In this document: positions 8,003 through 64,000 of the stretch, one piece after another
Position numbering within the stretch: the stretch's first letter is position 1
How the letters are laid out: each line of letters begins with the position of its first letter
Origin: Cenococcum geophilum
Lineage: Eukaryota
Reading direction: 5' to 3'
DNA: 64,000 nucleotides
Assembly: GCA_050273025.1 (NCBI GenBank)
Contig: CP158635.1
Coordinates: 7,068,001-7,132,000, forward strand
Notes under the pieces: generated by a model
What the model was told of the DNA's origin: nothing
Database searches by the model: none
The model's input: only the letters and a program-made list of their open reading frames with translations
Translations under genes and position numbers: made by a program

Positions 8003-8310
8003 CTACCGATAAAACCCCTCATCCCCATCCACCCCACCGTCTTCCACGCTGCGCGCGCCCACCGCGCCCCACCTGCCTTGCTGCTGCTGCTGTTGTTGCT
8101 GTGGGGGATGATACGCCTGATACGCGCCGCCGGGCCTGCCGCCGGCCCCGCCGTCAAGCGGCGGACTGCTCGGCACGCCGGGCGGCGGGTACGCGGGCTG
8201 GTGGCGCTCGTACGGCTCCTGCGGTGAGACGTGCGGCAGCTGCGGCGAGTAGAGCGGCTCGTACGCCTGCTGCTGGGCCTGCTGCGGCGGGTAGTTGGAT
8301 GATGGCGGCG

Positions 8311-8345
<35 letters not shown>

Positions 8346-12073: not shown

Positions 12074-15081
<3,008 letters not shown>

Positions 15082-15737
15082 TGCCAGCTTCCTCGTTTCC
15101 CTGTCGGCTAGCGGGCCGCAGTAAGATGGGCCTGATTGACTGCTCCTGGGAAGAGGGGGGAAGAGGGCGCACAACCGTTACTCAGAGGATGGGCAGGTAT
15201 GGTTTTGGGAAGAGCAAAATACCCCGTCTAAGCCTAGGCAATGAGGTTTGGATGCTTGCAAGACCGAGGTAGCGTCTTAACTGCTTCACGCTGGAAAGCA
15301 GACGAGACGAGTTAGGGCACGGGATAGTGGCCGGCCCCTTCGCAAGCTGTCAAATTGCCAGAGAGGTCCTTAAAAAACCGCCTCGCTGTGATTCGGCCGG
15401 CGCGCGTCTTTATCATGGGAGCCCTGTAGCGGGCAAAGGCCCTCCAGCCAGCCTGAGTGAGGGAGCACCCGAGGGACCTCTCCACCCGCCTGTTTTCGTG
15501 AAGATCTTCCAGTAATAACAGCGGCAGCAGCAGCAGCAGCCAGAAGCCAAAACCGAAAGACAACAAGAGTCGTCCTGTCGTCAGATCATTTCCGCCCATC
15601 TCCTTTACAGATCCCTACATACTTTGCATACGCAAACACCATGGTATTACCACCGGCCAGGGCACTGGGCGTTTCAGAGTGGCGATCGTCTCTAACGCGT
15701 GGCGAAACAAGCCCCATCTCAAGCCGCATTTGTACCA

Positions 15738-20550: not shown

Positions 20551-23500
20551 CTACCAGCAGGCGCCAACCCCGACGGCGCCGTGCGCGTCCGCCGCGCCGC
20601 CCTTCGCGAACCAGCCGCCGCGCTCCCACTCGCCGCGCTGATAGAGCGCGGCGTGGCGGATGCGGGGGTCAATAATGCCGGCGAGCAGCTCGGCGAGGCG
20701 CAAGAAGGAGATGGGCTTGAGGATCCAGCCGTCGAACCCGGCGTCCATGTAGGTCTGGCGGTCGCGCTCGATCAGCGAGGCGGAGACGGCGATGATGGGG
20801 ATGCGGCCGTTGAGCGCGGCGCGTGCGGAGAGGCACCGCGTTGGGTGCGTCTTTTCGTAGGACCGGATCATTTTGGCGGATGTGAGGCCGTCGACGATGG
20901 GCATCTGTATGGTGGTGGGTGGGTGGAATTATGGGGGGGGAGTTCTTGGTTGAACTGGAAGCCGAACTTACCTGCATGTCCATCAGGACGACGTCGAAGA
21001 TCTCGGGCTGGTCGCCGAAGGCGCTCGCGCACTCTTCGCCGTTGATGGTGAGGTATATCTCGTGCCCAATCTTCTCCAGCCTCTTCTTGAGAATCCTGCT
21101 GTTTACCGGGTCGTCCTCCGCCACGAGTATATGCATGTGGTCTGCAGATGGCGGCTCCGTGTCGGCATCCGCATTGTCGTTTACCTCTCCCAAGATTCCG
21201 GACGAGCTCGGCGGATGCTCGTTGATCGGCGAGCCAACCTCGTCCGGGATTTTGACAACCCTAACCGGCGCTACTGAGTATAGCAGGATTTCCTCGCCAG
21301 GCTCTCCAGGAATCATCGAGCGCTGGTGAGGCGGAACGGTGGGTTTTGCAGCAAGGTCGAGGCTGCGCGACCGCATTCTCTTAGGTGCTGCTGGCAGGCT
21401 TTTACTATAACTATTCCGCTTCTCCAACCGCGGTCTAGACGAGCGCGTGCTGTTGCTCCGCTCCCCAGATTTTGGCCTCTTTTCTACAAGATGGGCCTCT
21501 TGGATCGCCTCAATCGATCTGTCCGCGTCGCTTCTGCCGCTCCTGTTGCTGGAACCGCTCTTGAAACTCCTGATGCTGTATTTGCTGCCGAGACTGTCGG
21601 CGCTCTCTTTTCGAGCCATTTTGCCGCTGCTGGAGTCCGTGCGCGTCATATCTCGCTCAACAAGAGTGACCTTACCATCGCCTTGTTGCGAGCCGTTAGG
21701 TTGGGGCGTGAGCGATCCTTCCGGTGATACAGTGGGAGTATGCTTAATCTCAGAATCCGGTAGATCGAACGGTAGCTGTATTACGAATCGAGACCCTCTG
21801 CTCTCTTCCGATTTCAGCCGCAATTGTCCGTTCATGTTGAGTATTGTTCGAGCGACTACAGCTAGTCCGAGTCCTAATGCTCTTTTTATCTCTTTCCCTT
21901 CTGACAATGCTTTTGATTCCGGAGCAATGGTGTCTTCAAGCATCGACGTACTCTCCGATTGAACTTGTTCTAGGTCACGGAACAATAAGTCAAGCTGCTT
22001 TGTATTCATGCCAATGCCAGTGTCCTGAACGGCAACTTCAACGTCTACGTGGTCATTCTGCCATGCTATGACGTACATCTCCACTTTGACGCTACCCTCC
22101 AACGTATTTTGAATGGCGTTGGCCGTGATGTTCGAGATTGCCTGTCGAACCTTCCTCTGGTCTCCAATAACATTTTTAGGCACACCCGGATGTTCCGTGA
22201 CTTCATAGATTATGCCTTTCCGCTGCGTATCGCCGGTGAACATGTCGGTGGCCTCGCGGAAGGTAGCCTTCAAGTCGAATTCTTCACCATTGATGAGTTC
22301 GCCGCCTTCTTCTGTCTTAGTTAGATCGAGCAAGTCGTTGATGACGTAGATTAAAGATTTGGATGCGGAATGCGACTTCGCCAAATTCTCCCGAGTTTCC
22401 TGGTCCAGAGATCCCTCCAGAGCGATTTCTAGGTAGTTTATGATGGCGTTCAACGGAGTCCGTACTTCATGCGCAGAATTTGCTAGCAGTAACCTTGTGA
22501 GTTGGCTGCTCTGTAATGCGGCCTCTTTCTGCCGCCAAACTTCAATGAATTTTCCGTACACAAGGCAGAGAACGGCTGCGGTCTCGATCTCTTCTTCAGT
22601 CCATTCTCGGCTACTGCCTACTACCGTTTCGCTCCAAGTCTTGAAACTCTTTCTGGGTTCCAGATAGCCTCCAGTGCCTTCTTTGATGAGCTTCTCGTAC
22701 GGATTTCCTGCCCATTTAACTTCCTTGAGCTGTCCTTTCCGGAAGAACACAATGAAGTCACTGCCACCAAATGAGAGAGGAACAACGAGCATGCCTACAA
22801 TAACCTGAAATCCGGGAGGATATCGTAAATCAGGGAAATCTTGCGTAACGTCTTGGGATGTCATGACTGATGTAATCTTGCGCATTCGTAGGTACTCCAG
22901 CATTGCGAGGGCCTCTTGTGACTGCTCCAGATCTCCTAGAATTTTTGTTTCATCTCGAATAGATAGGAGTCCGAAATCTGCGTCGAAGAGCTTGAGAAGG
23001 TCGTCCGAAGAAGCAATGATATATCCAGACGGGTTGTGTTGAGTAGGTACCGTGTTGATGAGTTTTCTTGCTTGTAGTCTTGATGCATAGGACAACCGTT
23101 CAATATTTCTTGATGCTGAGTCTCCAACTAACCGACACATCTTGCGGATGGGAAAAGACACACGCATACCGCGGGGCCCATAAGAATGACAAGAAATGAG
23201 GCCCCAAAGTTCGCCAAAGGCGTTAATTGATATGGACATGGACGATCTGACTGCCATGTTGGCGAGGTATTTGAGATGTATAGGTGACATTGCGCGGAGG
23301 TAGGAGTATGTGAGATCCAACGGAGTTTCCAAGTCCTCCACGGTCCGGCAAACGAGGCGTGCTGTTCCTTGGTCTCGATCATAAAGCATGCGCACTCGAT
23401 TGAGTTTGTATAGTTCCCTGGCTTGCTTGGGTATATCCGATGCGGGAAATTTCAAGCCTTTGTATAGATCTTTGGTTGCTCTTGGATCAACCAGTTCGGT

Positions 23501-24985
23501 CACGACTCGACCGTTCCAGGCCTGATCGAATTGATAGATCATCACACGATGAAATCCTGTCAATTCCTTGACCACCCCAACGAGCACTTGGAGGAACCTC
23601 TCTAGATTTGGTGCAGCTGCAAGTTGCTCCTGAACTTGTGACATTATATTAAACACCTCCATGGCTGCAGCTTCACCTTTACGTTTTCTAGCATTCCGTA
23701 AGATGCGCAATGGCCTACTCTTCGCCTCCGTGCTCTCTGCATATTCTTCAGCCGTAGGTTGGCTGTTCAGGGTATCTTGTGGGAGTTCTGGCGTAAGGTC
23801 GCTGGATGGTACCAATGGGTTCGTAGGATCATCTTCCAGCTCAAACTCGCATATTAGGAGGCCAGGATTCCGGTCATTCATATGCATTGCACACCAAAGT
23901 TTGCGAGACCTTCCGCTGGGGGTCTTGATTGACATTGTAAAGACTTCCGGTCCGTTCGTCGCAACATCCGCGTCTTCATCCCTGATGAAATCTATGTGAT
24001 CTAGTAGATTGTCTGTTTGTTCCTCTGATAGTATATCTGTGAAGCTCTCGAGTGCGAAAAGCTCCTTAGGCGATCGTCCGATGATGCGCCTGGAGTTCTC
24101 GCTCACGATCCTGATGGGAAGAATGCTGCAGTTCTCGGAGTCTTCCTGCAGCGCAATCAGAAGGCCGAAGCCCTGAACTGCGCCTGGGATGTGTATGGGT
24201 TCATCCTCGCACCGCTGTAGAACGTCACCATCTCTTCCGGTGATCACCGCATGCCCACCATCGGATATCACATGTTTGAAACGGGCCGTTAATAGCCCTC
24301 CGACTTCTCCCAAGCTGCTCTTGTTGCTCTTTACCGACGAGCCTGGCCCGGTAGAAGGAGGCCGATCATCAACTAGTAACGAGGCCGTCCGGCTTGTGTT
24401 CTCGCTCCCTCCAGATCTACTAGATATTATGTCACTGAAAAGCTGCGCTGGTAGCCTAGGAGGAAGCTGCTTAGAAGAGTCGCCTCTAGATGGCTTTATG
24501 GATCCTCTGCGGGCGTCCTGAGCAGCCTGGGCAGGCGGGTGTTCCGGTCTCGGCGTCAAATCCGCACCATCTTGACATTTTTGGCGTAATGTGGCCTTTT
24601 TAGGACCTTGCGAGGCATGTGAGGTATCCGAACCGACAGATTGCCGTCGAGCTTCACCGGCACGAGCTGAGTAGTGGTAAAAGTAGTCGCCCTGCCAGTC
24701 AGGACGCTGTGATAGCGTAGGGGTGGGATCGACGGATACGACACTTCTGATGGGGAACACGCGATCTGTAGCTCCGGGACTGAGTTGACTCATTCCTTCA
24801 TCCGACGGCGAGGGGACTGAGTAGTTGACCCGGGGAGGAGATTTTTGTCGAACTTTGGATGCATTGGAAGGCGGAGAAGCCCATGCCTTGGGGCAGTCTT
24901 TCCAGGTTGGTGGTGGTGATTGTTTAACCCCACCATGCTCCAAGGAATGGTCGACGTCCTTCAGCTGAGTAAGTTGTTGAGACAT
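20551..24985 (-). CDS. fphA: Fungal phytochrome (PAS-GAF-PHY-histidine kinase-receiver); intron 20905-20971
   Basis: RCEDEPIHIPG (bilin-binding Cys), GFHRVMIYQF, FPASDIPKQAR, SPIHLKYL, PRKSF, AHEVRTPLNAI (H-box), DTGIGM, VLMDMQ|MPIVDG receiver joined by a GT-AG intron. Confidence 0.96.
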
Positions 24986-26573
24986 CGGGAGCTCTGTCGA
25001 GCCCGCTGGCCGTGGCGGAGGCAGTAAGGAAGTGAAAAGTTGAAAAGGCCACGGACAGACTCACAGACTTTGTTGGAGAAAGTTAACGTTGGAGGCCGGG
25101 CAAGCGGCCAGCAGAGAGATTTTGCAACGTGCTCGTCCACGCCAGGGACTTTTTCATCGGTTTGTCAAATCGCCATGAGCTTTTGTGGGCAATGCAAAAT
25201 GACGTGTTGGAGGATAGGGAATATTTTGGGCGTGTTGCACGAGCAGATGAAAGACTACAGAAGCCCAGTTTGCCACCCGTAGCTTTGGATGGGTTTCCCT
25301 GATCTTCAACGGGTGCTGCAAAACAAGAACGACGCAGGTGGCCCTGGGGAACAGCTCAGCATTCACCGCAGGCCACTCGGGCTGGTGCATGTACGTTATG
25401 CAGGGAATCCGGGTTCCTAGACAAACGAGATATGTGGTGGCGTTTGTATCGGACCCTGAAATCTTGGTGCAGCATGTTGCGCACAGATTCCTTGGGCTGA
25501 GGGCTGTCTCTTTTCAGGCAGTAGTCTGCGTCACAGTAGTTCAAACAAGGCAGAGAAAGAATGAGGCATTTGGGACAAGGGCCTTTGGGCAAGTGGAGGG
25601 GACTCGGCCAAAGACAGCCGTTAGACAGGCGGCGGGTTGCAGTGGCCAGGGCAGTGGTTAGGGTGGGACGACAGCAAACGGGAGTCATGAGAAGAACATG
25701 GCGCGGGTCCAAAGCCACAGACGCGTTGTAGCGACGGGTGGTGTGGCTTTTGGGCGCAGGTGCTGATCTTGATGTCAATCATAGGATTTACAAGGGAATT
25801 GTGCCACGATCAGCGGCGATCTTGGCCATTAAAGAGTAGTGGGCAAGTAGTGGGCGAGAATGCCCTGCAAGCTGTCTGAAACTCGCGTTCTCCGGGCTAA
25901 AGAGGGATTTGTGGGGGGGGACGAATGGATGGAGCGGAAGGCGTAGTACGGTATGATGGGGAACTGCCCAAGGGATATTTTCCCTGTGCGCTGCGGAACC
26001 ATTCAGTAAGAGAACGCCGCTGACGGGAGACGAGCTACGTCAGCCAAGGCTGGGAAGCCCCAAGGAAGAGGGTTGCCCTGGTGTGTCCTCGCAACGCTTT
26101 GAAAAGAACCATGGCTAGGGCTATGCTGTAGCGGGACTGTGGCATGTCCATAATCATCATGATCGTCTTACACCACGTTTGGAACAAGCGCGCCGAGTCA
26201 GTCAATCGATGTCAATCAGTCACCGCATCAAGCAAAAGAAACGCCGAGACTGGTGTTAAATGCCGCCCTACTACGGATTGTACCGTTCTATACTCTGACC
26301 TCCTTCCTCCCACCTCCCTCCTCACGAGAGCACCAAGCCTGCTGCAGACTGGCATCCAGCCAAGATGCACGCTAGCCACGCAGCTTTAGCCTTTCCTGAT
26401 GAGGTTTGCCACATCCCTCTCTCTTCCTGCCCGGCACAACCAAGCCTTTCGCGAGTCATGCGCGCCCCAGAAGCCGAAACCCGCGTTAAGCCACCACAAA
26501 GCGCCACACCCACACTGAGACACCTTTACTTGGTCGACAGACACAGAAATCCCACAACCGCAATCTCTTCGCC

Positions 26574-28346
26574 ATGCCGTCGTTGGATCATGCCCGTCCT
26601 CTGAACGTCTTAATTGCCTCTGCGACCTCCTCCACCCCCGACTTCACTCGGGACGTTATCCTGCGATTGTCCCAAGTCGAAAATGTCCACACTCGGTCGA
26701 TAATAAGAGTCCGCCACAACCCACCCTTCACCTTCACCTTCGCCTCGCACATTCCCAACCTCATATACTACAAGGACCATGAAGACTACAAGTCGTCTCA
26801 AGACATTGAGCGAGAACAAGAGCATGCTGCGGAGCTATGCGGCTGGGCAGACCTGCTCGTGCTGGCCCCTATAGACGCCGACAGTCTAGCGCGGATGCTC
26901 CACGGTATGACCAACAACCTACACCTCGAGATCCTCAGAAGCTGGGACGTCTCCAAGAAGATCCTACTCCTTCCCGGCATGTCGACATTGATGTGGGAAA
27001 ACCCCATGACCAAGAAGCAGCTCAGCAAGATCCGCAGGAAATGGAACTGGGTCCGCGTCCTGCAGCCCGTGCTGTGGGCCTTCGAAGGCAGCAGCGGCCG
27101 CAAACAGCTTCCGTGGGACGGGCTCGAGGGGCTGATGGAGTCTGTGCAGACGCAGGTCGACCTGATAACCATAGGGCGGGACGTGGACGTTGCTGTGCCG
27201 CACATGTCCACCTTCACGCCCGCTCGCAAGCGCGAGCGTGTGCTGCCCCCCGAACTGTGGTCCATCATCCTCGATTACACCGGCGACTGGGAGCTCGCCA
27301 CCGCCCTGAACGTGCACACGACCGTCCCGACCCCAGACGAATGGCGCCAAGCGGGCAGCGAAGCGGGGCCGCAGACCTACACCGGGAAGCTCGAATGGAC
27401 GATCCTGACGGGCACGCTGTCCGAAGTGAAGACCCTGCTGGCTGCCGAGAACCCAACGCGGCTCTCGCGCCTCTGCATCCGGCTCATCATGCGCTTCGGC
27501 ATGGTGCGGCTGCTCTGCCACCTCGAGAGCGCGCACCGCGAGCTCTTCTGGTCGACCTTCGGCCACGCCTTCCTGCCCGTGAAAGCCTCCTCCGTCTTCG
27601 GCCGCATTGAGATCCTCGAGTACTGGCGCACGTCGCCAGCGTTCCTGACCAAGGAGTACTCGGCCGAGGCCATGGACAAGGCCAGCCGCGCCGGCTTCGT
27701 CCACGTCCTCGACTGGTGGGCCCGCTCCGGCCTGCCGCTCAAGTACTCCGAGGCCGCGCTCGAGCAGGCCAGCTCCCAGGGCCACATCGCCGTGCTGGAG
27801 TGGTGGAAGCTGCATGGGCTGCAGGACGCCGATACCAGCAAAGCGCTGCCCGCCGCCGCCGCCGCCGCTGCTGCTGCCGTTGCGTCTGCGGAGATCGATA
27901 CCGCGCCTGCGCCTGCGCCTGTGCGCCTCCGCTTGAAGGTCGGCAAGTCGATTTCCTACGCTACCCAGTCCGGATCCCTGCCCACGCTGCGCTGGTGGAG
28001 CGAGTCGGGCATCGCGTTCCCGCATGAAGATACGGTGGCCAAGCTGGCGTCGACGCATGGCCACGTGCACATCCTTGACTTCTGGCGGAAGCTTAGGGGC
28101 GAGAAGATGTTGTTCGATAACCAGGTGCTGGTCGGCGCGACGAAGATGGGGCATGCGGATGTGCTGGAGTGGTGGAAGAAGAGCGGGCTAAGGGTCGAGT
28201 ATAAGACGTGCGATATCGAGGAGGCATTGGAGGACGGTGTGGAGGGGGAGAAGGGACGTGTGGTTAGGAGGTGGTGGGCACGGAATGGGTTGAATCTTGG
28301 GGTAGGGACGAGCGAGTGGATGAGGACGAAGGTTTTGTGTTCGTGA
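26574..28346 (+). CDS. HFCD/Hal3-like flavoprotein domain + F-box-like motif + ankyrin-like repeats (590 aa)
   Basis: ELCGWADLLVLAP...PGMSTLMWENP (HFCD family); LPPELWSIILDY (F-box-like); repeated AS..G.v.VL.WW ankyrin-type units. Confidence 0.85.
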   Translation: MPSLDHARPLNVLIASATSSTPDFTRDVILRLSQVENVHTRSIIRVRHNPPFTFTFASHIPNLIYYKDHEDYKSSQDIEREQEHAAELCGWADLLVLAPIDADSLARMLHGMTNNLHLEILRSWDVSKKILLLPGMSTLMWENPMTKKQLSKIRRKWNWVRVLQPVLWAFEGSSGRKQLPWDGLEGLMESVQTQVDLITIGRDVDVAVPHMSTFTPARKRERVLPPELWSIILDYTGDWELATALNVHTTVPTPDEWRQAGSEAGPQTYTGKLEWTILTGTLSEVKTLLAAENPTRLSRLCIRLIMRFGMVRLLCHLESAHRELFWSTFGHAFLPVKASSVFGRIEILEYWRTSPAFLTKEYSAEAMDKASRAGFVHVLDWWARSGLPLKYSEAALEQASSQGHIAVLEWWKLHGLQDADTSKALPAAAAAAAAAVASAEIDTAPAPAPVRLRLKVGKSISYATQSGSLPTLRWWSESGIAFPHEDTVAKLASTHGHVHILDFWRKLRGEKMLFDNQVLVGATKMGHADVLEWWKKSGLRVEYKTCDIEEALEDGVEGEKGRVVRRWWARNGLNLGVGTSEWMRTKVLCS

Positions 28347-29943: not shown

Positions 29944-30354
29944 GGTTAACTTGGAAAATCCTTAATTATGGGGAGAAGCGTACAACCCACGCCCTCTCGC
30001 ATTCACAACAATTGCAAAGCGAGAATCATACCACCAGACCATATGCCCGTAACATAAAAAAAGTTCAGCAATTAATCACTAGTTATCCGATAAACGTAAT
30101 AAAACGGCGCCTACAAGTTGGGCGGGCGACCGCTCAGCTATGGTGGGCCATACTTATCTCAGTTGACTCAGACCCTCGGAGAAGAATTCGGCCCGGGCCT
30201 CCACCTACGAACTTATGTGTACTTATGAGCCAATCAGCGGCTGCCGCCGCCTCCCTTGGGCCCACATTTAGCACCCTTGCAACTTATGGGTATTTATGGG
30301 CCAATTAGTGGCAGGTGGCACGCCGTAGGCTTACGCTAGCTATTGCAGCTAATT

Positions 30355-33300
30355 ATAGAGCCCCAAGCCGGATTCCTCTCCAATGGTCTAAGGGATTATA
30401 GGCGCGATTTATAAAGGCAAGCTAGCTGCCTAGTAGACGACAATTGTATCGCCTTTAACGCGGTATATCGCCCCCTAATATACCACCGCTTAACTCGCCA
30501 ATACCTCTATTTAAAAGCCCTCCTCTTACTTTATAGAATCCATCTATAATAGAGCCCAGCCGTGCCTTAAGTGGGCGTTAAGGCGACTAAGACACCCCTA
30601 GCTGTCCCCCCTCTATTTCTAGCCTCTCTAGCTAGTTAGAAAACATTATTAAACTATCTAAGCCCTCATCTAACAATAGTAATAACGATTTAGGCAGTAA
30701 CTAAATAGGTAGTAATAAGAATAAAGTGCCTAAGCCTTTATTAAGGCGTTATAAGAGGTAGGGGAACCGCGCGTAAATGTTATAAGCCGTAGTTAATACA
30801 TTAAAAGAAAAAGGTTAGAGCTTTACTTAGTTCTTATCTACTTAGGTTAGGGCGGATAATATAGAAGAGAAGGGAATTGTAATTAAGCACCGTCGGTACG
30901 GTCGCGTTAGATAGCGGTGTTAGGCTCTATTAGATGCAGTTACAAGAGACCTATAGTTAAGTAATATCCTATATACCCGAATAAAGTTATATATAGTAGA
31001 GCTAGATTACCTTATTTAGGAATTATATTTTACCACATTTAATAGAACGTTAAAACTTAAGGACTTAAACTTTAATGTCGTCTTTTACTCTATATAGAAT
31101 ACTGCTCTAGAATAGTATACAACTTTAATATAACTATTTAGTAATTAGCAGGCGTATAGGGCTAGCTATAGTAATTAAAAAGCAAAGGGCTAGAAGGTAA
31201 ATAGCTAAGATACGCTAGTAAGGCGGGCATATGCTATTACTAGTATAATTTATTTCTCTTAGGCTAAGAAGCGGTCCAATTTCTTTTCTTTAGTAGTAGA
31301 TATATATCTTATAGGCTCTAGTATAAAAAAAGGGTGTTTAAAACGTTAGCTAGCTTTAGATTATGCTATAGTTATTATTCTGCGAATTATACTATAGGTA
31401 GTATTGCTAAAAAGGTAAAGGTATATTAGTTTTTATATTAGTACTATATATCTATTAGTACCGGCCTCTTAACTAAACTTACGCAAACTCTTATAAACTT
31501 ATAAGCTAATTAGTATAGCCTTTATAAACTACTAGCTGGCTAGGGGCTAATATTTATAGAGGTATTTTATAACGCTAGCGTATAACCCCTAGATGGTTGT
31601 TATATATAATAATATAAACTTTAAAGATATAAAGCGCAATAAGCTACTTGGTTATATATCTATTATGCGCTCTTTAATAACTGCTGCTATTATCTATTAT
31701 CCTAAACTACCTTTATTAGGGCTGCGTTAGTTAATGTATAATCTAACTATTCCGCTAAATATTAAGGACATCTACTAATCTCCTAGCTTTGGCGATGAGT
31801 TATTACTATAAATTAGCCATTACCTTATTACTAACGTAATAAAGGGGATTTACCTTACTAGTATAGAGCGTATCTTTAAAGATAGTGATCTTTTCCCTTA
31901 GATGCTAAGTATACAATATATTAGTAATAAGAAGACTAGATTTTAGTAGTTTAGTACTATTATAGAGGATAAGGGTACTATCTAAGGTACTTATAGCGTC
32001 TATAAAAGTATTTTCCTTAATTAGTTTAGTCTCCAGGCTCTAAATAACCCTTATAATAGCACTACTTCTAATAATTTTACTAAGCGGCTCTGGCTTGCCT
32101 ATAGTGACTAGCTTACTATATATTATATTAGGTTAGTAAAATAGGAGCAGATTTATACCAGCCGCCCTTTTAATTATTAGGACTAGCTACTTAGTATACC
32201 TATATAGTTCTATATTAAGATAAATCTATATAATACTCTTATACGTACACACTTTACGCCTAAGGATAAGTAAGAAAAGGCTTTTTACTGTCTACAGTCT
32301 AATATAACGCTATAAAATCGCTCTATAATTATATAAGAGAATACTAAATACTATAAGTTAGTACCTATTATTAAACGGGGTTTTATAGCGCGGATAACCG
32401 CCCTCTTTTATACTGCTATATAGCGTTAAGGCTTTAGAATTAGTATACCTAATTTATCTAAGCTGTTAGATCTAGACACCCTATCTAACCTATCTTTCTC
32501 TAAGTATATTAAAGATATTACCCAGGCTATTGGCTGCCTTACGCCTAAGTAGTTCCTAGATATTATTAATAAGATTTAACATAATGCCTTTTCTTAGGAC
32601 GCGTGAACGGGCGTAAAGTATAATAATATTAAGTTTCGGATAATATGTCGCATACTTTAAAAGGTTAAGCTTTTATTTACTGTTTAGTATACTATTAAGT
32701 ATACTAATATGGATATACTACGGCGGCTTATTAACCCCCTTATTATATTTTTCTTTAGTGCGTTATAGCATAATTACGGTTAAGAGATGCTATTCTATTA
32801 GTAGAATCTTACGTTAGTTAATTCGCCCGAACTTTAATATACAATCCTATCCTCTAGGCTAGTAAACTAGCTTAAAGCTCCCGATAAGTATAAGGTTATT
32901 AATCTTAGGTTAAAGTACTTAAATGGAAGCTATAAGATCGAGATAAAGTACTATAAAAACTCTACTTACGATATAGATATTATATTTAATTAAGTATACT
33001 TATTAAATACAACAGTTAGAATATTACGTAGTAAGATAAAATATATATTTAGTAAGAAGATATTAGGTACCTATACGCGGGCGAAGGCGGACCTTAATAT
33101 ATTTATACTTACTCGGAATCTCTATTCTAGTAACTTAGCTATATTATAGCAACTAGTATAGCTAGTAGGCTTACGCCTATTTAATTCTTATAATATTTTT
33201 AGCACTAGAGTAGAAGTTCTAGTAAGGAAGGTTAATAAGTTTAACTAGGTCTATATTTAGGGTCTGCGTTTAGTTACTACCTCTTATCCTCCTTTAGATA

Positions 33301-33440
33301 TAGAGGACCTAGCTAGCTTTATAGATATATAAAACTTTACTAATACTATTAAAGATAGGCTAGATAATATAAAGGAACTAAATTTTACTTCTAATATACC
33401 TTCTATTAGCTAGGAGGCTCTAAGTAGCCTATAAACTTAG
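30355..33440 (+). pseudogene. RIP-mutated DUF6589 (Academ-like DDE) transposase gene
   Basis: De-RIPed motifs YDNINF (~31605), EDEGTIQGT (~31965), HGDQLT (~32100), WLLGIPAWFHIEMN (~32185), LVNW...IDLGLEHLN (~32860-32925); ends approximate. Confidence 0.75.
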
Positions 33441-34317
33441 GTATACTTATATAAACTTATCGGCCAATTAAAGCGCGGCTTTCCTCTTTAGTTTGCCCTA
33501 TAAGTCTCCCTCTCCTTTACCCTATAAGGCCCCTCTACCCTAGCCCTATATATAGCCTTAATTATATTAAACGATCGCCCTATACTAGTCTATACTGGAT
33601 AAGCTATATTATCCTGCAGCACTTTAAATTAATAATAAAAGTATTGCCACTTCTTAGATCTTGGAAGGTATAGGTTTAGCTTTAAAATTTAAACCTAAAG
33701 GTAGATAATTTAAAGTATAAGCTAGGCTAATAGACTTAGTCTAGATATCTCCCAAACTTATATAAACTTATTAGCTAATTAGAATAAGGCTAAACCCCCT
33801 AGGTTACTGACCCTATTATAGGCCTTAGACCCTAAGATAATAATAACTTAAGAGGAGGATATCTAGGAAATACTATAAAGAGAAGGAATATAAAATGTCT
33901 TAATTAAGGGCCCTAGCCTTATTCTAATTAGCTAATAAGTTTATATAAGTTAGTATAAGTTTAAAAGATCTCTAGATTAGGGGCTAAAGCCTATATTAAC
34001 GGGCCCTAATAAGGGCTGGAAGCTATTATCTATAAGGGGTAAAGGCTATTAGCTAGATAATATATCTTAACTTAAAAACCCCCGCCTTGCCTTAATTAGC
34101 TAATAAGTTTATATAAGTTTATATAAGTTCGGAAGATATCTAGAGTAGTAGTAGCTTATATTAATAGACCCCCGCTAAGAGTAGAGGCTATTACCTATAT
34201 ATGGCGACTATATACAAGCCTCTATTTATAATTTTATACGTTAGTAATAAACGCAATTATATTACGTTATTAGAGTAGTAGGTTAATAGTAGAATAAGAA
34301 AGTAAATTCGTTTTACC

Positions 34318-34550
34318 TAGAGTAGAGGCCCGCTATACTTACTCTACTTTTACTATAAGCAGAGGCCCACTATACTTACTTACTTATCTACTATCTATCT
34401 AGAGTAGAGGCCTACTATACTTACTTACCTATCCGCCATCTATCTAGAGTAGAGGCCTACTATACTTATTTACCTAATCCTCTACTAAGCAGAGGCCTAC
34501 TATACTTATTATCCTCCTCTTACTCCACTAGAGTAAAGGCCCGCTAAGCC
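34318..34550. repeat. Degenerate ~35-45-bp tandem repeats with core AGAGGCCTACTATACTTA
   Basis: About six copies visible. Confidence 0.8.
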
Positions 34551-34799
34551 TACTCTCTTTTTAGGGATAGAGGCTAAGTCTATATATCCTAACCTATAGG
34601 GCTTATAACGCCTATAGTTAGGCCTATCTAAAATACTAGCTTCTTTACCTATACGGGATCTAAACTAACTAGGTAAGGTTAAAGCTTACCTATAAAAAGC
34701 CTTATAGTTAGACCCTTCTAAAATACTAGCTTTTACTAAAATAAGGTTAAAGCCTTCCCTATAAAGGGAGTCTAAAAATACGCTATACTATACTAGTCC

Positions 34800-35640
34800 C
34801 ACCCCCTTATCCTCTATACTATTAGCCCTGTGCCCCTAGCTCTAGGTAGAGGTAGTTATAGTCCCTTTAGTAATAGGGGCTATAGGGGCGGAGCTAGTAA
34901 TACCTACTAGGGTTTAGGCTTAGCCCGCCTTAAGATAGAGTATCTACTAGGGTAGGCCCTTATATAATAGCGGGCATAAGCGTCCCTAGGCTTATATACT
35001 TACTAGGCGCCTACCTTAAAGTAGACCTAGTACTTTTAACTATCCTTCTAGTAAGCTAGGCACCAATCCTTACTATAAAGCTACTTACCTAGCTCTATTT
35101 TTATAATCCTCCTAATATAAAAGAGGTTTCTCTTATTATTAGCCGTTTAGAGAAATAACTACTACTTACCCTAGCGGACGGCAGTATAGCCGTCCGTAGT
35201 TTTGCCCTAGAGTTACTAATTCTAAGGCAGACGCGGCTAGTTAGTAAGTTAGGCAGTATAGAAGCCTACCTAGGTAAAAGAAAGGGGAGGACCTAGAGCG
35301 GCGCTAATAGTAGGGGCAGGTGGCTAAGTTATAGGTCTACGTATATATAAGCTAATAATTAATATAATAGGTATTATAGTACACATACCCAGCAAGGCCA
35401 ACTATATTATTATTATTATCGTCGCCGCCAAAATCTAGCAGGCGGTTATTGTTATTATTATTACCATTATTATTATCGCTGCTAAGGGGGAAGGTAGGCG
35501 CGATAGGGCTAGTAGGTGTAAGGGGGGTAATAAGCGCAAAGAGGGGGGCGAGAAGTAAAAAAGGTAAAGGAGGAGAAGAAGGAGAAAGGGCGCGCGGGCG
35601 AGGACGCCGGATAGTCCCTAACCTTAGTTACCCGTATAAG
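34800..35640 (-). pseudogene. RIP-mutated small intron-containing gene, low-complexity Ser/Pro- and Asp-rich, product unknown
   Basis: Minus-strand GTATGT donor near 35388 with a TAG acceptor near 35337; codon-like low-complexity runs. Confidence 0.3.
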
Positions 35641-35737
35641 AGGGCAGCAATAAGGAGGAGGATTTACTTTTTCTAAAGTAGGAAGTTTAGTAGGTATATA
35701 AGCACCTAGGCAGCAGAAGGAGATATTAAAGGCTTTT

Positions 35738-36162
35738 TGTAACGGAACCTTGTAGCAAGAACTACGGTGGGCTCGTTATTGGGCTAGGTGTGTAGGAAAT
35801 GCAAGTATAAAAGTCAACAACGTAATAACAATTGGTAGAGTGGTTGCCTAACAGATTAACTCCAATTATATTCTAAGAATTACTATAAAGAAGGAACTAT
35901 CTAGGTAGGGACTAAGGGTCCTTAAATATATAACCGTACTCCTATAAAATCCTTCTTGTATATAATATACGTCTTATATATAAGGTACGTAAGTTCCTCT
36001 TATTCCTCTTATTTAATACGTAGCATATTATATAACCTTAGTTACTATTCCTTATTACATGGTTCTATTGGCTCTATTCCGGACCGTACCTAAATTAACT
36101 AACTAGCTTCTTCCGTCTCTTCTCTAAGTAGTTATAATATTATACTTAAAGCGTCCGTAATA
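35738..36162. repeat. 3' LTR of Gypsy element 1
   Basis: Starts TGTAACGGAACC; direct repeat of 43264-43688, differing mainly by transitions. Confidence 0.95.
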
Positions 36163-36269
36163 CCATCTCCCTCCTCTTTATCTTTGTCCTTAAAGATTTA
36201 AAATATCTCTAAGTTGTTTACTAAAGGTATAATATCCGTTTAATTAATTTAGTTAATATTATTGCTTAT

Positions 36270-36900
36270 TATACCTAAAGCAATTTCTTCTTTACACGCC
36301 TAACGTCGTGCTCGTACTATTGCTGCAATATTATCTCTTAGTGAGATTATGCCGTCTCCGTATTCTTGTTATTTAAAAGAGGGGTTGGTTTATATTATGT
36401 TAGCGAACCCATCTTTATAACAACTGTCCTCTTGCTTAGAGTATACTAAAGCGAATATTTATTCGTTCTATGACGTTCGCTCTACTTTTAATACTAAATA
36501 TACGCGATTTATTACTCTTAATAGTCGTCTAGTTCCCTAATTAATTTATCTTAGGGTTTTATGTTTAATCTGCTACTATATAGCTAGATGGTAAACTGTT
36601 ATAAGCCCTTACTAAGTTGGAATGTTCCTGTAATGCGGAATAGAAGGCTCTAAATACTTAAATTACGGCGTCTACTTATCTGCTTCGTCTTAAGAAGGTT
36701 TATAAGAAGGTTTATTTTAAGGAGTAGAAACTTATAGAATAAGGTCTATAGGAACTAGGTAATAAAAGAATAGATTCTCTTCTAATAGAGAAGGAAACAG
36801 ATCTAAGTAGTTTGGCAACTGCTCTTCTTAGGTCCCCCTTAGGTAACTTATTCTTTAGTAATCCTTCTTTATTAATACTGCCTAACCTAATCTCTTCTAA
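36270..36900 (+). pseudogene. Antisense accessory ORF in the 3' region of Gypsy element 1, with a Cys6 (Zn-cluster-like) motif
   Basis: De-RIPed MPSPCSCCLKEGLVCIVLANPSLRQLSSCSECTKANIRSSCDVR at 36349-36480; several Cys codons are inferred from TAT>TGT reversion. Confidence 0.55.
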
Positions 36901-39900
36901 TACTCCTGTACCTTTCCTATAGCGTTTTTTAAATTCTCTAGTAGCTCCTAGGTAGTTTTAGTATAGCCTATTTACTTAACCTTGTACTATATTTTGTCAT
37001 CAATGTCCTTATAATTAATGATCTTTAATACTTACTATTTGTCTTCTTCTTATCCTTTATATGTGTCTACTTTATAAACCGGTGGCTTAATATTCCTATA
37101 TACTGGCTTTAGTATTGCAATGTGCTATATAGGGTAGATCTTCATTTTAGCTAGTAGGTTTAACTTAAATATAACCGGTGAAATCTTTTATATAATTTCA
37201 AAAGGTCCTAGTCTAACGTGGTCCAATTTCTTACTTAGTTATCGACTCTTAAAATTTTTATATAGTAGCTATACTTTATCTCCCTCCTTAAGATCTAGTC
37301 CCTTAGATCTCTTAGTATTATAGTACTTTTTCATTCTCTCTTATACCTTCTTTACTAATTCCGTAAGGTTTGCATAAAGATTCATTAATATCTTTATTCT
37401 CTCTTTGGCTATACTACTTATTTTCTTTACTTGCCGTAGTAATAATGATATTCTTAACTTGTATCCGTAATTTGCCTTAAATAGTAATATACCTATTCCT
37501 TCTTAAGGTGTTGCATTATATGCAAACTGTGTAACTAGTAATAGTAATACCCAATTATTTTATATATAATTAATATAATGCCTTAAATACTACTCTAGCG
37601 TCTAATTTAATCTTTCCGTTTAACCGTCTATCTATAGATAGTATACGGTGGAAGTTACTACTTAAACTCCTTACTCCGCTAAGAACACTTCCTAGAATGC
37701 TGCTATAAATCTTAGATCTCTATCCGATATAATCTTGCTTAGTGCTCTATATCTTATAAATACTTCTTTAACGTAGATTTTAGCAACATCTTCCGCTGAG
37801 ATTTCTTCTATGTATGCTATAAAGTATCCCCACTTTATAAGCTTGTCTATTATTACTAAAATCGCGTTATAATCTTATCTAGTAATAGGATCTTTTAATT
37901 TTAGCAACTTAATAATAAAGTCCTATAATATAACCTCCTATGGTTTCTCTGGTATTTTAATAGGTTATAGCCCTCTATATAGCTTATGCCTTATTAGTTT
38001 ATTCCTTTAGTAATTTAGACATTCTTTTATAACCTTTCTAGCTATTCTTTAGATTCTATCAATAACGTACTCCTCTTAGAGTCTCAACACTAAGCCCGTA
38101 GCTCTATTGTGTTCTTAGGTTAGTCCCTTATAGAAGTCCTCTATAAACTGCTCTACTATACTTCTTAGAATATACTTTACTTTTTAATTTTCGTATATAT
38201 CCGTCTATAGATCTTCTAGCTATACTTTTAGAATTCTTTACGCCTAAAAGCTTTCTAGTGTCTTATAGACTTTCTCTAGTTCATCGTCTTCTTAAGTTGC
38301 TGCGATTTTTGGATAATTATACCTAATTAATCCGTCTATATCTTTTTGCAATAAAGCCCCTAATAGCTTTTCCTTATTTTGTAGTTTAGCTTTACGGCTT
38401 AAAGTATCTGCCCGTATATTATCTGTACCTTTAGTATACTAAATCTTGAAATGGTATTCTATAAGCATCTCTGCCTATCTAACCTATCTTTAGTTAAGTT
38501 CCTTTATTATTAAGAATCCTATTAGGTTCTTATAATCCGTCTTAACTATAAATAGTTTCTCTATACCTTGTAAGAATGCTCTTTATTTCTTTAATACTGC
38601 AACTATACCTAATAACTCCTTATTATAGATGTTATAGTTTAACTCTGGTGGTGTTATCTTTCAACTATAGTATGCCACTAGGTGCCATCTATTTTAATGC
38701 CTTTATATAAAGTATGCCCCTAGTATATAGTCTAATATATCCGTTTCTATAATTGTCTCTAGTCCTAGTTAATAGATCTTAAGAACTAGCTCCTAGGTAA
38801 ACAACTTTTTAACTTTCTTAAAGAGTTTTCTTTGCTCTTCCCCCTATACCTATAGTTCTTCTTTCTTTATTAACCGCGTAAATGGCTTAATATCCTTTAA
38901 CTATTGCGCTATAAACCTTCTGCAGTAATTGCAAAACCCTAGGAATAATCTTAACTATATAACGTTCTCTAGTTCCTACCAATTTACTATAGCCTCGATC
39001 TTTTTTAGATCTATACTAAGTTAGCTTAGTTTAATAATAAATCCAATAAAATCAGTCTTTCTAGTAAAAAACTCGCATTTCTTAATTGCTACTAGCATCT
39101 GTTCTTCTTATAGTCTCTTTAAAACCTATTTAACGTATTCCCCGTATTCTTCCTTAGTTATTAAGTAGATAATAATATTATTAAGATATACTATAATAAA
39201 TTCATCTAAGTATTCTCCTAATATATTATTAATACACTTCTAGAACGTTGCTAGTGTATTTATAAGCCCGAATTGTATAACTAATAGTTTATATAATTCT
39301 TCTTTTAACCTAAAGGCTGCCTTTTATTCGTCGCCTTCCTTAATCTTAATTTAATAGTACGCCCATCTTAGATCTATTTTTGTAAAGATTTGCGCATTGC
39401 CTATCCTATTTTAGATTTCGCTAATTAAGGGTAAAGGATACCTATCCTTCCTGGTAATGCTGTTTAACTGTTTATAGTTAATATACAGCCTTAGTTTACC
39501 ATTCTTCTTTAGTATAAATAGTACTGGATAACCCGCTAATAACTATAATGGTCTAATATATCCCTTTCGTAGATTTTCCTAGATAAACTCTTTTAACGCT
39601 CTACCCTCTTCTTTAGTAAGCTTGTAGATTAGAAAGAACTTTAGACTTATTCCTAGTTCTAACTCTATTTTATAGTCCTATGCTACATATTCTAATAGCT
39701 TTTTATTTTTTGGTAACTATAGTTTTTTACTATACTTATAGTATCTTTTTGGTATATGGCTTAGTCCTTTTTCTGTTTCTTTATAGGTTGCTCCTACTTA
39801 GTACTATACCAACTTGGCTTATTATTGTATTTTGTGGCGTTAAGTATCTCTAATATTGACCTGACCTGTATTCCAATTAATTCTTAGATTATATTCCTAT

Positions 39901-42900
39901 AACTAAGGCATACCTAATACTGCCTCGTCCCGTCCCAATAGTAGGATATTAAAAGACATCTCGATTTATTTTCCTTTAATAGTTATCTAAATAGGTCCTG
40001 TTTTAAGATTAATAATCCTTCCTCTATAGGTTATTGGATCTCCTAAAATTATAACTAATAGGTAAGGTTGCTCCTTTTGTCTGTGAGGTAGCCCCATTCT
40101 TTTAACTACTGCTAGTGAGATATAGTTTCGCGTTACTCTACTATCTATTAGTGCTTTAAACTACTAATCTTACTAATTAATCCGTAAATTTAGGTGTTGT
40201 CTTTAAATTCCTTTAAGGGTCTAAGGCTCTACTACTGGCTCCCTCTAGTTCTATAGGCCTCTACTTTTTCTAACTATTAGCTGCTTAATCCTAGTGCACT
40301 TAGCTTGCTCTTTAGCTAATACCTAGTTTGCTTTTTATCTTCTATATACTATAGACATATATTTTTTAGGTATTTCTACCACTATTATCTATCTAAGCAT
40401 TCTTCTATAAGGAATCTTCCTAGTTAAAGTACTAAACTTCCTTCCTCTTGGATTTCTATTAGATGCCATTTATATATATATTTAGCATTCCTATACTATT
40501 GCTTATCCGTTATCTAATATATCCTTATAGGGTATTTCTAATTCTTCTCTTTTGGATTCTTATGTATTTCGTATATATCGTCCACGCACGCAATCTATAA
40601 TATTATGTGGTGTACTAGGTGCTTTAGGTTAACTCTTAGCTTGTCTTTATCCCTAAGTTTAAACCTTTATTATATTAATCTAAACGTTATAACTTTATTT
40701 ATAGGTACTAAGATGCGTCTCTTGCTTCTCTAGTCCTCTAAACGTTTCTCTAAATCCTTTAACGTTATAATTAAGGCTCCTTTAATATACGTTATGGCCT
40801 TCTCTATAATTGGGTGGTCCTAAATAACTTTTTTATCCAACTATATATAGAAATCTTCCCACTTATTATTGTGCCTTTGCCTATACTACTTTTAGTATAG
40901 CTACTAGAGTGTATATAGTCTGTCTGTAAGGAAGTATCTTCTTATTACTGCATTGTGACAGCCCTTTATATATCGTTCCTCGAACCTAGTTAGAATCCCT
41001 AGATCCTCTTTATCTTCTAGTTTAGTAAGCCACTTAGCTCTTAATATACCTACTCTCGGCCTATTAGTAATTCTTTATACTAGTGCTCTGTCCTTTATAC
41101 GTCCTAATATGCTAGATCTCTTATTTAGTTTCTGTTCTTGCTATGTAATAATTCTTTACCTAAACTCTTTTATAGTTTCTTTTAGTTTACGCCTTGCGCT
41201 CTAATCCTTAAAGTTATCTTACTTTTTAATCCTAATATTGGTTTTTTAATCTTTAGTCTAAACACTTTATTTAACTAGTAAATCCTCTAGGTTTATATAT
41301 TTATCTCCTAATCTAATTACTGTTTATGCTACAGATTCTCTAATCTGTAAAGAAGCCCCTTGCCTCTTATCTGTGGGTATCCTAATTCGCACTTTAAATT
41401 CTTAACCCCTTAGGTTCTTTAATCCTAAGCTTGCTTCTAACTTAAGCTTAGCTCTAGCCTTAGTCTAACTAGGCTTACTTAGTATTCTTATCTTATCTTA
41501 AGAGTCTTAAATCTCACTTATCTCGTCTTAAGAATCTTATGCCGTTAGGAATTCTTATCCCGAGCTTATTTGTATATCTTTAAACTAAGCTGCTGCTCTA
41601 CTCTATCGGTTTCTATCTGTTATAGGTCCTTAAGCTTGCCTTATCTTATCTTAAGAATCTTAGTCGTCTCTTATCTCGCTATAAGAATCTTAAGCCTTTG
41701 GCCTTTTGCCTTTATTAAGTGCTGAAGTAGTTTACTGTCTTACTTCTCTTATATCTCGTAAAGCGATAGATATTATATCTAGTAGGGTTTTAATCCCTAC
41801 TAATGTTCCTTGTTCTATAATAGAATCATCCTCTACCTCTAGTATAATATCTTTAAGGTCTACTTACTCCTAGTAAGCAGCCCTTATTACCTTATTGTTA
41901 TAAAATATTTCGCCTAGGTCGAATTTATTGTCCTTAATATCCAATCTGCGAACTAGTTCGTTAGTTCCTCTATATCCTATAGGTACTAGCTCTTATAGCT
42001 AATAGCTTGCGCTGTACTTAGCGTCCTTATAAATTTGGCATGCGTTATTGTAATAAAACGCAAAACTTTTAATTAAACACTCTTTTATTCCTTATAGTAC
42101 ATTGTTATCCCTTTATACGTATATATCGTCTACTAGTCTTATACCTTTTACTATATAGTGACTTTACCTACTTCTATAGTCTCTAATATAATAACCCTGT
42201 TTTCCGCAATTTATGTAAGCTCCTTCTTTAAACTATTTCTCTTACTATAAAATCCGCCTAAATATCTTCTGCTATTAAGATCCCTAATTTGGCCTCTGCT
42301 CCTTAGACCTTTAATTATTTAATCCTTATCCTCTAGGTTTCTATAGTTTGCTCTATTTCTTATAGGCTTCTTTAGTACTACTTAGGTTTATTAGCTCTGC
42401 GCCGTACTATAGTTTCTAACTTAGCTTTTATTGTTGTATACTCTACGCCTTATATAACTATAGAACTCTATTTTAGCCTCTCTTAGCCTGTTCCCTTTAG
42501 TAGATTTAATTATTAATCTTAATTGCCTAATCTATTAGTTCCCTTAGGGTATCCGCATCTTCTATTAGGATAATTGCGTCCTAGACTTTAGCCTTAAGTC
42601 CCTGTTTATACTATGCTATAAGCGCCTTATTATTCTACTTTACTTATATTACTAGTATCTAGAACTATATTATATACTTAATTGCTAAAGTTCGTTATAT
42701 AAGGTTCTGGAGTTTTCTTTTTGCTATAGTTATTTCTTCTAGGTCTCTAAATATCTATATTAGTTATTCTGCGAATTCTTCCTAACTTAAGAATATAAAT
42801 CGCACGTCTTAGTTAGTGGTTGTTATTCCGTTTGCCTATATCTCTATAAGGTAAGATTTAAACTACTTAAGTGCTTTTCCTAATAAGAATAGTCCTGTAT

Positions 42901-43263
42901 AGGCTATCCAATCTATAGATATAGGTAACTTTGCTCCCTCCTATAAGACCTTAAAATGTATCTATATAAGGAATCCTTTAAGCTTTAACCTCTCTCCTAT
43001 AAATCTCTTAATTAATAGTAGCTTAATCTTTGCTGCTCCTATCCCGTTAAGTCTTTCTTCTAATACTATATTGTTAGCTATTAGCTAGTTAACTATTTCC
43101 TATAGCTGTCTGACCGTCATAGGTTGCTATAAGTCAGTATCCGCTATACTGGTGTTACCTCCTGTCCCTAAAGTAGTTGCTACCGTCGATGGTGTTGTGG
43201 TGGCTGCTTTTGGTGGCATGTTATTTGACTTCTTATATTAATACCGTAACTAGGTAGTAATTA

Positions 43264-43688
43264 TGTAACGGAACCTTGTAGTAAGAACTACGGTGGGCTT
43301 ATTATTGGGCTAGGTGTATAGGAAATATAAGTATAAAAGTTAACAACGTAATAATAACTAGTGGAGTGGTTGCCTAATAGATTAACTCTAATTGTATTCT
43401 AAGAATTACTATAAAGAAGGAACTATCTAGGTAGGGACTAAGGGTCCTTAAATACATAACTGTACTCCTATGAAATCCTTCTTATACGTGATGTACGTCT
43501 TATACGTAAGGTACGTGAGTTCCTCTCGTTCCTCTTGTTTAATACGTAGCATATTATATGACCTTGGTTACCATTCCTCGTTATATAGTTCTATCGGCTC
43601 CATTCCGGACCGTGCCTAAATTAACTAACTAGCTTCTTCTGTCTCTTCTCTAAGTAGTTATAATATCGTACTTAAAGCGTCCGTAATA
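43264..43688. repeat. 5' LTR of Gypsy element 1
   Basis: Starts TGTAACGGAACC, ends CCGTAATA (RIP of ...CA), followed by the CTTTT TSD. Confidence 0.95.
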
Positions 43689-43749
43689 CTTTTAAAAAAA
43701 ATATAGTATTATAAATATCTAAAGAGGAAGAAAAAGAGAAGTAAAGGTT

Positions 43750-63906: not shown

Positions 63907-64000
63907 CTTCCCCAAGGCAGTTAATAGGAAACTTAAGTTAGGAAGGTAGGCTCTAGAGACTTACGCTTTACTAATTAATACGTTATACTTTAGTTGCTAA

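Follow-up and report, generated by a model that had tools for sequence, protein, structure and literature searches.

In the plant proteins ZTL, FKF1 and LKP2 a LOV domain is followed by an F-box and by Kelch repeats, and Legionella AnkB and the poxvirus Ank/PRANC proteins pair an F-box-type motif with ankyrin repeats. Mammalian FBXL5 has the same order of an accessory, cofactor-type domain, an F-box and repeats, and is described as an iron-responsive E3 ligase with hemerythrin, F-box and leucine-rich repeat parts (PMC3537052); for F-box proteins of Aspergillus nidulans, ankyrin repeats are mentioned in the S1 Fig legend of PMC9744329. The HFCD fold is that of the eukaryotic 4′-phosphopantothenoylcysteine (PPC) decarboxylases, i.e., human PPCDC (1qzu), AtHAL3a (1mvl/1e20) and Cryptococcus Hal3 (6eoa). 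According to a review of Hal3, the catalytic residues of AtHal3a are His90, Asn142 and Met145 (within PXMNXXMW) and Cys175, and the active sites lie at the protomer interfaces of the homotrimer (PMC9604783). In yeast Hal3 and Vhs3 the HFCD domain is partly degenerate and has a regulatory, protein-binding role; Hal3, Vhs3 and Ykl088w all keep the conserved His, and recombinant Hal3 retains flavin mononucleotide (FMN) (PMC9604783, PMC6168597). Here we analyze a gene of Cenococcum geophilum whose product recalls all of these systems. It lies at 26574..28346 on the plus strand of a stretch of 64,000 nucleotides (contig CP158635.1 of assembly GCA_050273025.1, positions 7,068,001 to 7,132,000; hereafter the window), and its 590-aa product has three parts, namely an HFCD/PPC-decarboxylase fold (residues ~9-200), the segment LPPELWSIILDY (residues 224-235) and an ankyrin solenoid (residues ~265-590). 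With a probability of roughly 0.6, we read this protein as a member of a family of Skp1-Cul1-F-box (SCF) substrate receptors of the Pezizomycotina that consists of a trimeric pseudo-enzyme, a cryptic F-box and ankyrin repeats.

The open reading frame (ORF), 590 codons from ATG to the stop codon, spans exactly 26574..28346 as a single exon, in the left, gene-rich part of the window (GC content 0.45-0.61). A word-indexed homologue search across 5.8 billion proteins gave 786 matches, and the following figures are from the best 120 of these. Identity to the 590-aa protein was 55-95%, and the matches were mostly of ~560-650 aa and near-full-length, with 98-100% coverage for the full-length homologues and 100% for those of 575-590 aa; a few shorter gene models (466-511 aa) covered 82-86% of the query, and one was longer (721 aa). 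All the named matches were from Dothideomycetes, e.g., Lepidopterella palustris (77% identity) and Lophium mytilinum (71%). Because the homologues are near-full-length and 55-95% identical, the single-exon model is sound, and these comparisons indicate a real gene on which purifying selection is acting.

A cluster look-up placed AN1767 (P0482), the A. nidulans orthologue, with P0396 in one 90% cluster. In BLASTP it shares 42% identity with the C. geophilum protein over residues 19-580 (E=8e-141); all three parts are present, the motif in the form LPLELW...DWEIAKA. We searched by term all 21 supplementary files of a study of the A. nidulans SCF complexes (Sarikaya Bayram et al. 2022, PMC9744329), in which the interactor lists were filtered against a control with free green fluorescent protein (GFP). 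In the SkpA-GFP table for vegetative growth (S1), AN1767 is listed with 15 unique peptides and 27 peptide-spectrum matches at about the 23rd row of 298, and its neighbours there include the F-box proteins AN4488, AN0557, AN5209 and AN2505 (PMC9744329). It is also listed in S2, S3, S5, S6 and S7 (asexual development, 24 h of sexual development, NaCl, H2O2 and menadione), that is, in six of the seven condition tables in all, and the term search did not find it in the SkpA-GFP table for 48 h of sexual development (PMC9744329). In the three-replicate SkpA-GFP table (S9A) it takes three rows, with 18, 23 and 25 unique peptides, and in the CulA-GFP table another three, with 3, 4 and 16 peptides, and the same search found it in neither of the free-GFP control files (PMC9744329). 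Table S10 gives 74 F-box proteins, to which four SCF-associated proteins were added in that paper; AN1767 is absent from the 74 (PMC9744329). Hence, AN1767 behaves in these pull-downs like a stable SCF component, yet it is not called an F-box protein, and this supports the idea of an adaptor. The original prediction had proposed an SCF substrate receptor, and this adaptor half of it is supported since AN1767 recurs with SkpA and CulA and is absent from the free-GFP controls; the support comes from co-purification, not from profile searches. In the main texts, a literature search for 'AN1767' returned only unrelated neuroscience papers and no fungal one. The S1 list also has AN6003, AN6187, AN10872, AN4085 and AN0286 high up, all of them uncharacterised and outside the 74 F-box proteins, which might be unrecognised receptors in their own right (PMC9744329).

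The part of the protein that would contact Skp1 is the F-box-like motif LPPELWSIILDYTGDWELATALNVHTTVPTPDEWRQA (residues 224-260, 27243..27353, plus strand), which begins with LPPELWSIILDY at 27243..27278 and is delimited from its translation, its conservation and weak F-box leads. Regional conservation was expressed as the mean top-residue frequency after filtering to 19 sequences with less than 65% mutual identity. By this measure the motif reached 0.70, on a par with the best-conserved regions of the protein. The linker that precedes it (residues 201-223, 27174..27242, plus strand) is poorly conserved, with a mean top-residue frequency of 0.56 in the family alignment, and was modelled at a predicted local distance difference test (pLDDT) score of 34-50. 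L224, P225, E227, D238, W239, E240, P254 and W257 are each retained in at least 90% of 67 relatives, distant paralogues included. By eye, the motif matches the spacing of F-box helices 1 and 2, L-P-x-E...I...L...V in the consensus; where helix 3 of an F-box would be expected, the sequence is Pro-rich and closes with a conserved Trp. The modelled helices within the motif comprise residues 226-236 and 239-244, plus a third one of 3-4 residues.

C-terminal to the motif, the ankyrin solenoid (residues ~265-590, 27366..28343, plus strand) was modelled as about nine helix pairs with pLDDT above 90. Pfam Ank_4 scored 20.3 bits on the whole protein (cut-off 22.7) and 23.2 bits on residues 218-590 alone, and it was matched by 62 of the 67 relatives. 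Foldseek matched the solenoid to Espin1-AR (E=9e-4), DARPins, ankyrin-1/B and the FEM1B/C solenoids. An unusual repeat signature, G-x-x-x-V-L-x-W-W, was counted by eye in seven repeats, and the C-terminus carries the conserved motif KTCDIEEALEDG. The "about six ankyrin-like repeats" of the original prediction were therefore right in kind and too low in number. Mean top-residue frequency was 0.63 for residues 261-418 and 0.67 for residues 453-590; between these two blocks lies an Ala/Pro-rich low-complexity insertion (residues 419-452, 27828..27929, plus strand), with a mean top-residue frequency of 0.21 and 40% gaps in the family alignment and pLDDT 51-63.

The family was found across the Pezizomycotina. 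A search started from a member of the Onygenales recovered it throughout the Eurotiomycetes (Aspergillus, Penicillium, Histoplasma, Coccidioides and Trichophyton), and members from Leotiomycetes (Golovinomyces) and Lecanoromycetes (Pycnora, Caeruleum and Polycauliona) came from cluster look-ups; Aspergillus fumigatus, Histoplasma, Coccidioides, the dermatophytes and many plant pathogens are thus among the carriers. When 1.84 billion representatives were searched exhaustively, 3498 matched at E<=0.001, with full-length members down to 31-47% identity. The same search retrieved paralogues that differ at the N-terminus but have the motif, W-W ankyrin repeats and CDIEEALED at the C-terminal end in common with the family. 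In those of basidiomycetes, which have the same LPxEI..DWEL motif, the N-terminal domain is swapped for a SAP-type region or a GST domain: the Cronartium paralogue (P0191) has a GST N-terminus, the best Pfam F-box-like match and a weak PRANC match; several basidiomycete-type paralogues (P0145/P0158/P0231/P0255) have an N-terminal region with a weak SAP match; and the ESM Atlas holds a 125-member 'SAP domain-containing protein' cluster from Basidiomycota. In the Rhodotorula paralogue (P0170) there is almost no N-terminal extension before the motif. Since the motif and the ankyrin repeats persist behind GST, SAP-type or short N-termini, they are, as judged from these alignments, the constant core, for which the HFCD domain is one of several alternative heads. 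This modular pattern is in keeping with a receptor core that carries an extra module for regulation or oligomerisation. Literature searches for the combination of HFCD, motif and ankyrin repeats found no description of the family. Database labels are hypothetical, 'flavoprotein' or 'PPC decarboxylase', the last one on Aspergillus, Lasiodiplodia and Golovinomyces members. Models of 1061-1146 aa from Aspergillus, Penicillium and Ophidiomyces (P0315, P0357, P0405, P0417, P0464 and P0466) fuse the gene to a neighbouring MFS transporter or alpha/beta hydrolase and are probably annotation merges. Several Aspergillus members (P0424, P0504 and P0520) are named 'uncharacterized protein L696', which we take to be a mimivirus-style name, and F-box clusters from Nucleocytoviricota are among the Atlas look-alikes of the motif region.

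We then consider the head of the protein. An HFCD domain of the PPC decarboxylase/Hal3/EpiD kind (residues ~9-200, 26598..27173, plus strand) is evident from Pfam, profile and structure comparisons. Pfam PF02441 (Flavoprotein) exceeded its cut-off of 22.7 bits with a score of 33.9 (E=3e-8), covering residues 84-162 only. In the PDB, the profile of the 99-member family matched human PPCDC (1qzu; E=1.1e-23) along profile positions 7-153, which comprise almost all of the HFCD domain, and AtHAL3a with E=3.5e-20. The AlphaFold model of the full protein on the family alignment had a mean pLDDT of 84.3 and a confident HFCD fold at residues 9-200; in Foldseek this model matched AtHAL3a (1mvn) with E=3e-8 and a template modelling (TM) score, on the target, of 0.73, and was also superposed on Cryptococcus Hal3, human PPCDC, CoaBC, EpiD and MrsD. 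The eukaryotic PPC decarboxylases were its best matches in both sequence and structure. The assignment of the N-domain made in the original prediction therefore holds, and so does its claim that the catalytic set has degenerated. In the profile alignment His90 of AtHAL3a falls on residue 85, a position occupied by V (61 sequences), A (37) or T (1) in the 99 members, and Asn142 falls on residue 137, where 97 members have Ser. As for the clamp Cys (Cys175 of AtHAL3a), between residues 160 and 199 no column had Cys in more than 3 of the 99 sequences, in a region where the PDB alignments stop near residues 153-158 and leave the exact column unaligned. The equivalent of Met145 was retained in 93 of 99 and is the sole catalytic residue named in the review that is not replaced family-wide. 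His84 had been considered as the catalytic His, as a single-sequence HMMER alignment paired the two through a one-residue gap; it was rejected because residue 84 is not conserved (K36, R18, E15 and others) and because the profile alignment places His90 on residue 85. From these alignments, the HFCD domain is catalytically dead across the family. In comparison with the eukaryotic PPC decarboxylases, it has lost the His90, Asn142 and Cys175 equivalents, its G-S-V-A-A loop is not conserved, and 390 further residues are fused to it; in comparison with yeast Hal3 and Vhs3, the family is without His, Asn and Cys, and has the F-box-like motif and ankyrin repeats in place of acidic tails.

What appears to have been kept is the surface between protomers. 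A homotrimer of residues 1-205 was predicted with a score of 0.87, which passes the mark (the best of three controls reached 0.02); the trimer runs shared at least 80% of their contacts, with a partner pLDDT of at least 81. The predicted interface, of the kind found in HFCD trimers, is formed by residues 86-89, 101-114, 122-126, 137-145, 169-176 and a few others, and its conservation, 0.60 compared with 0.48 in the remainder of the domain, was reached by 71 of 10000 random subsets. In AtHal3, G115 and L117 are the central interface residues (PMC6168597), and the positions aligned with both are included in the predicted interface. The conservation pattern would be accounted for most simply if the trimer interface was kept and catalysis lost, and on the basis of this model the protein is inferred to trimerise.

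Taken as a receptor, the protein would work as follows. The pseudo-enzyme N-domain, with its HFCD fold and protomer interface kept and its catalytic His, Asn and Cys lost, would join three copies; the divergent F-box (residues 224-260), of which helices 1 and 2 are recognisable, would dock on Skp1-Cul1 while rigidly set against the first ankyrin repeats; and the ankyrin groove of each copy would bind a substrate. Direct contact with Skp1 via the motif, substrate binding by the ankyrin repeats and the absence of flavin are what we infer for it.

Several observations weigh against this reading. Pfam found no F-box match for the 590-aa protein at E<=10; the scan for Flavoprotein, F-box-like and Ank suggested along with the original prediction thus gave the first above its cut-off, Ank on residues 218-590 (as Ank_4), and no F-box-like. 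In relatives, F-box-like was matched by 5 of 48 and by 6 of 67, in all cases below the gathering score; the best match (E=6.8e-4) had 19.8 bits versus a cut-off of 24.3 and comprised profile positions 3-22 of 47 only, and the F-box profile proper was matched by 2 of 67 relatives (best E=0.19). A profile of the motif region, made from 18 family and paralogue sequences, retrieved no F-box protein from the PDB at E<=10, its lone match being a hexokinase (E=1.7). Foldseek of either model against the PDB also gave no F-box protein, only HFCD and ankyrin matches, because the solenoid dominates the comparison. Weakly in favor of an F-box, the two best named look-alike clusters of residues 216-270 in the ESM Atlas are F-box ones, and their scores, 0.80 and 0.75, are below 0.9 and count as leads only, with shuffled proteins reaching 0.8 one-third of the time; F-box or F-box-like clusters also take 3 of the 10 Atlas structure rows (TM 0.44-0.49). 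What stands of the F-box-like segment proposed originally is the pull-down of the orthologue with SkpA and CulA and these sub-threshold leads; no profile search calls it an F-box. As to the pull-downs, gpdA, hsp70 and similar abundant contaminants are present in the same tables (PMC9744329), the data concern AN1767 and not the protein of the window itself, and they do not prove direct binding; AN1767 may have been recovered as a substrate or through indirect contacts. As to the trimer, its pass may reflect the memory that the model has of solved HFCD trimers, and the mark, attained by 21 of 30 proteins solved as one-chain pairs and by none of 23 solved as single chains, was calibrated on two copies, not three, with the family alignment not supplied to the prediction. 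Finally, the motif had a pLDDT of only 34-52 in the full-length model. In the model of residues 218-590, made with a more diverse alignment, it reached 96-97 and was packed on the solenoid, which suggests that the motif may be held in a fixed packing on the first ankyrin repeats.

This last result can be read in another way, i.e., LPPELW...DWEL would merely cap the ankyrin solenoid at its N-terminus and not be an F-box, and AN1767 would have entered the pull-downs either as a substrate or by way of a different receptor. The confident packing of the motif without Skp1, the fact that neither profile nor fold searches found an F-box, and the place of AN1767 outside the 74 F-box proteins of PMC9744329 agree with this. 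However, AN1767 has peptide counts on a level with those of bona fide F-box proteins, and it appears in six of seven conditions and in three rows of the replicate table (PMC9744329), whereas substrates are usually transient. In addition, the motif matches the spacing of F-box helices 1 and 2, by eye, and the sub-threshold F-box-like matches recur (6 of 67 relatives). We regard a mere cap as unlikely, although it is the first alternative to be kept in mind.

The remaining alternatives concern what the HFCD domain does. The dead pocket, which lies at the predicted trimer interface and is better conserved than any other part of the N-domain, might still bind PPC, phosphopantetheine, another metabolite of the coenzyme A (CoA) pathway or FMN, and this would make the protein a metabolite-gated trimeric SCF receptor; we consider this improbable as things stand.

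A role like that of Hal3 appears a little more doubtful. In this case the dead HFCD domain would form mixed trimers with a genuine PPCDC or bind a Ppz-type phosphatase, and so link CoA synthesis or phosphatase control to SCF. The precedent is set by yeast Hal3 and Vhs3, in which the catalytic set is no longer complete: both assemble with Cab3 into mixed trimers and act as inhibitors of Ppz1 (PMC9604783, PMC6168597). The interface half of the HFCD domain is conserved here as well, and in the PDB the sequences nearest to it are those of eukaryotic PPCDCs; against this, the homotrimer alone is already predicted, with the score of 0.87, to assemble.

According to the sensor half of the original prediction, the HFCD domain would still bind FMN and gate the SCF receptor as a redox or light sensor, as a convergent analogue of ZTL/FKF1. 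In HFCD enzymes the G-S-V-A-A loop holds the FMN phosphate. This loop, which follows strand 1, reads G-S-V-A-A in the human, plant and Cryptococcus PPCDC of the PDB, and in the family it is replaced by L/S-T-D-P-S, with Gly in 18 of 99 sequences. The strand-loop region downstream of it carries indels and is among the least conserved sequence, and the whole N-terminal half of the HFCD domain (residues 9-84) had a mean top-residue frequency of 0.30, the lowest of any folded part of the protein. Since the half expected to grip the cofactor is the least constrained, cofactor binding is doubtful, and from sequence it is likewise doubtful that the family is still a flavoprotein. In favor of a flavin sensor, the HFCD fold is kept at high confidence, the A-P-x-D-A-x-x-L segment, Met140 and Trp141 are conserved, the pocket-forming C-terminal half (residues 85-170) is strongly conserved (0.71), and the orthologue associates with the SCF core; but the trimer interface accounts equally well for the conservation of residues 85-170. 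A phytochrome gene adjoins the HFCD gene divergently at 20669..25060, which may be a coincidence, and in Aspergillus the orthologue has an MFS transporter on at least one flank instead (from fused gene models and cluster lists). Nothing was found that ties HFCD folds to photochemistry, and we know of no HFCD flavoprotein that is a photoreceptor. Flavin, redox or light sensing is therefore not supported, and we consider a flavin-gated receptor very doubtful.

That the protein is an active PPC decarboxylase, as the database names and the Flavoprotein match would have it, is next to excluded by V, A or T at the His90 position in 99 of 99 sequences, Ser at that of Asn142 in 97 of 99, the lack of a conserved clamp Cys, and NCBIfam matches to coaBC/coaC that are far below threshold (coaBC 40.6 bits versus 219.7). 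Because the catalytic residues are lost family-wide and coaBC is so far below its cut-off, the name 'phosphopantothenoylcysteine decarboxylase' on several members is, on these sequence grounds, very probably wrong.

With respect to the systems described at the outset, the protein is a structural member of the HFCD fold that fails its catalytic tests, it is not recognised as an F-box protein by profiles, and it is outside the LOV class. The parallel with ZTL/FKF1 drawn originally stands in the order of the parts (N-domain, F-box, repeats) and goes no further than this likeness of layout, since the Pfam scan of the 590-aa protein gave no PAS/LOV and no hemerythrin domain and the N-domain is an HFCD. 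Unlike in ZTL/FKF1 and FBXL5, cofactor binding by the N-domain is doubtful here, and this domain looks more like an oligomerisation module. Legionella AnkB, the poxvirus Ank/PRANC proteins and some A. nidulans F-box proteins also combine an F-box-type motif with ankyrin repeats for substrate binding; unlike the present family, they are not known to carry an HFCD domain, and in PRANC proteins the F-box-like part is C-terminal.

Other features of the window were recorded as well. The phytochrome (20669..25060, minus strand) is a fungal one of 1463 aa with PAS_2, GAF, PHY, HisKA and HATPase_c domains and a weak receiver domain, and its start is ~1.5 kb from that of the 590-aa gene, so that a light sensor adjoins a gene once proposed to encode one. 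On the same strand, two adjoining ORFs at 12809..15177 with PBD (P21-Rho-binding) and protein kinase domains are probably one intron-split gene for a kinase of the PAK/Ste20 type, an SH3-domain ORF and an adjoining ORF of 367 aa without Pfam match occupy 8003..9745, and an ORF with DUF6590 lies at 4058..4846; an ORF with a GGACT (gamma-glutamyl cyclotransferase-like) domain is found at 1618..2310 on the plus strand. Long AT-rich blocks (30001..48000 and 54001..64000, GC 0.30-0.39) resemble degraded repeats, GC skew is strongly negative at 36-48 kb, and the GC-richer island of 48-54 kb between the blocks contains an ORF of 753 aa (50211..52472, minus strand) without Pfam match.

If the family is one of SCF receptors, a conserved protein is missing from the lists of F-box proteins compiled for these fungi, as profile searches do not pick up its F-box, and the evidence for AN1767 is already contained, unremarked there, in the proteomics supplements of A. 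nidulans (PMC9744329). For annotation, the family is very probably mislabelled where it is called PPC decarboxylase, and is otherwise left hypothetical, in databases across the Pezizomycotina, pathogens included. Known oligomeric SCF receptors dimerise via a D domain. Oligomerisation by means of a trimerising pseudo-enzyme placed before the F-box would be new among SCF receptors, and the family is a clear example of an essential enzyme fold that was reused after catalysis was lost. Should the receptor turn out to be gated by a metabolite, it would be a third independently evolved 'sensor + F-box + repeats' design, beside the LOV-type ZTL/FKF1 and the hemerythrin-type FBXL5, and through it protein degradation in filamentous ascomycetes would respond to the status of CoA or flavin.

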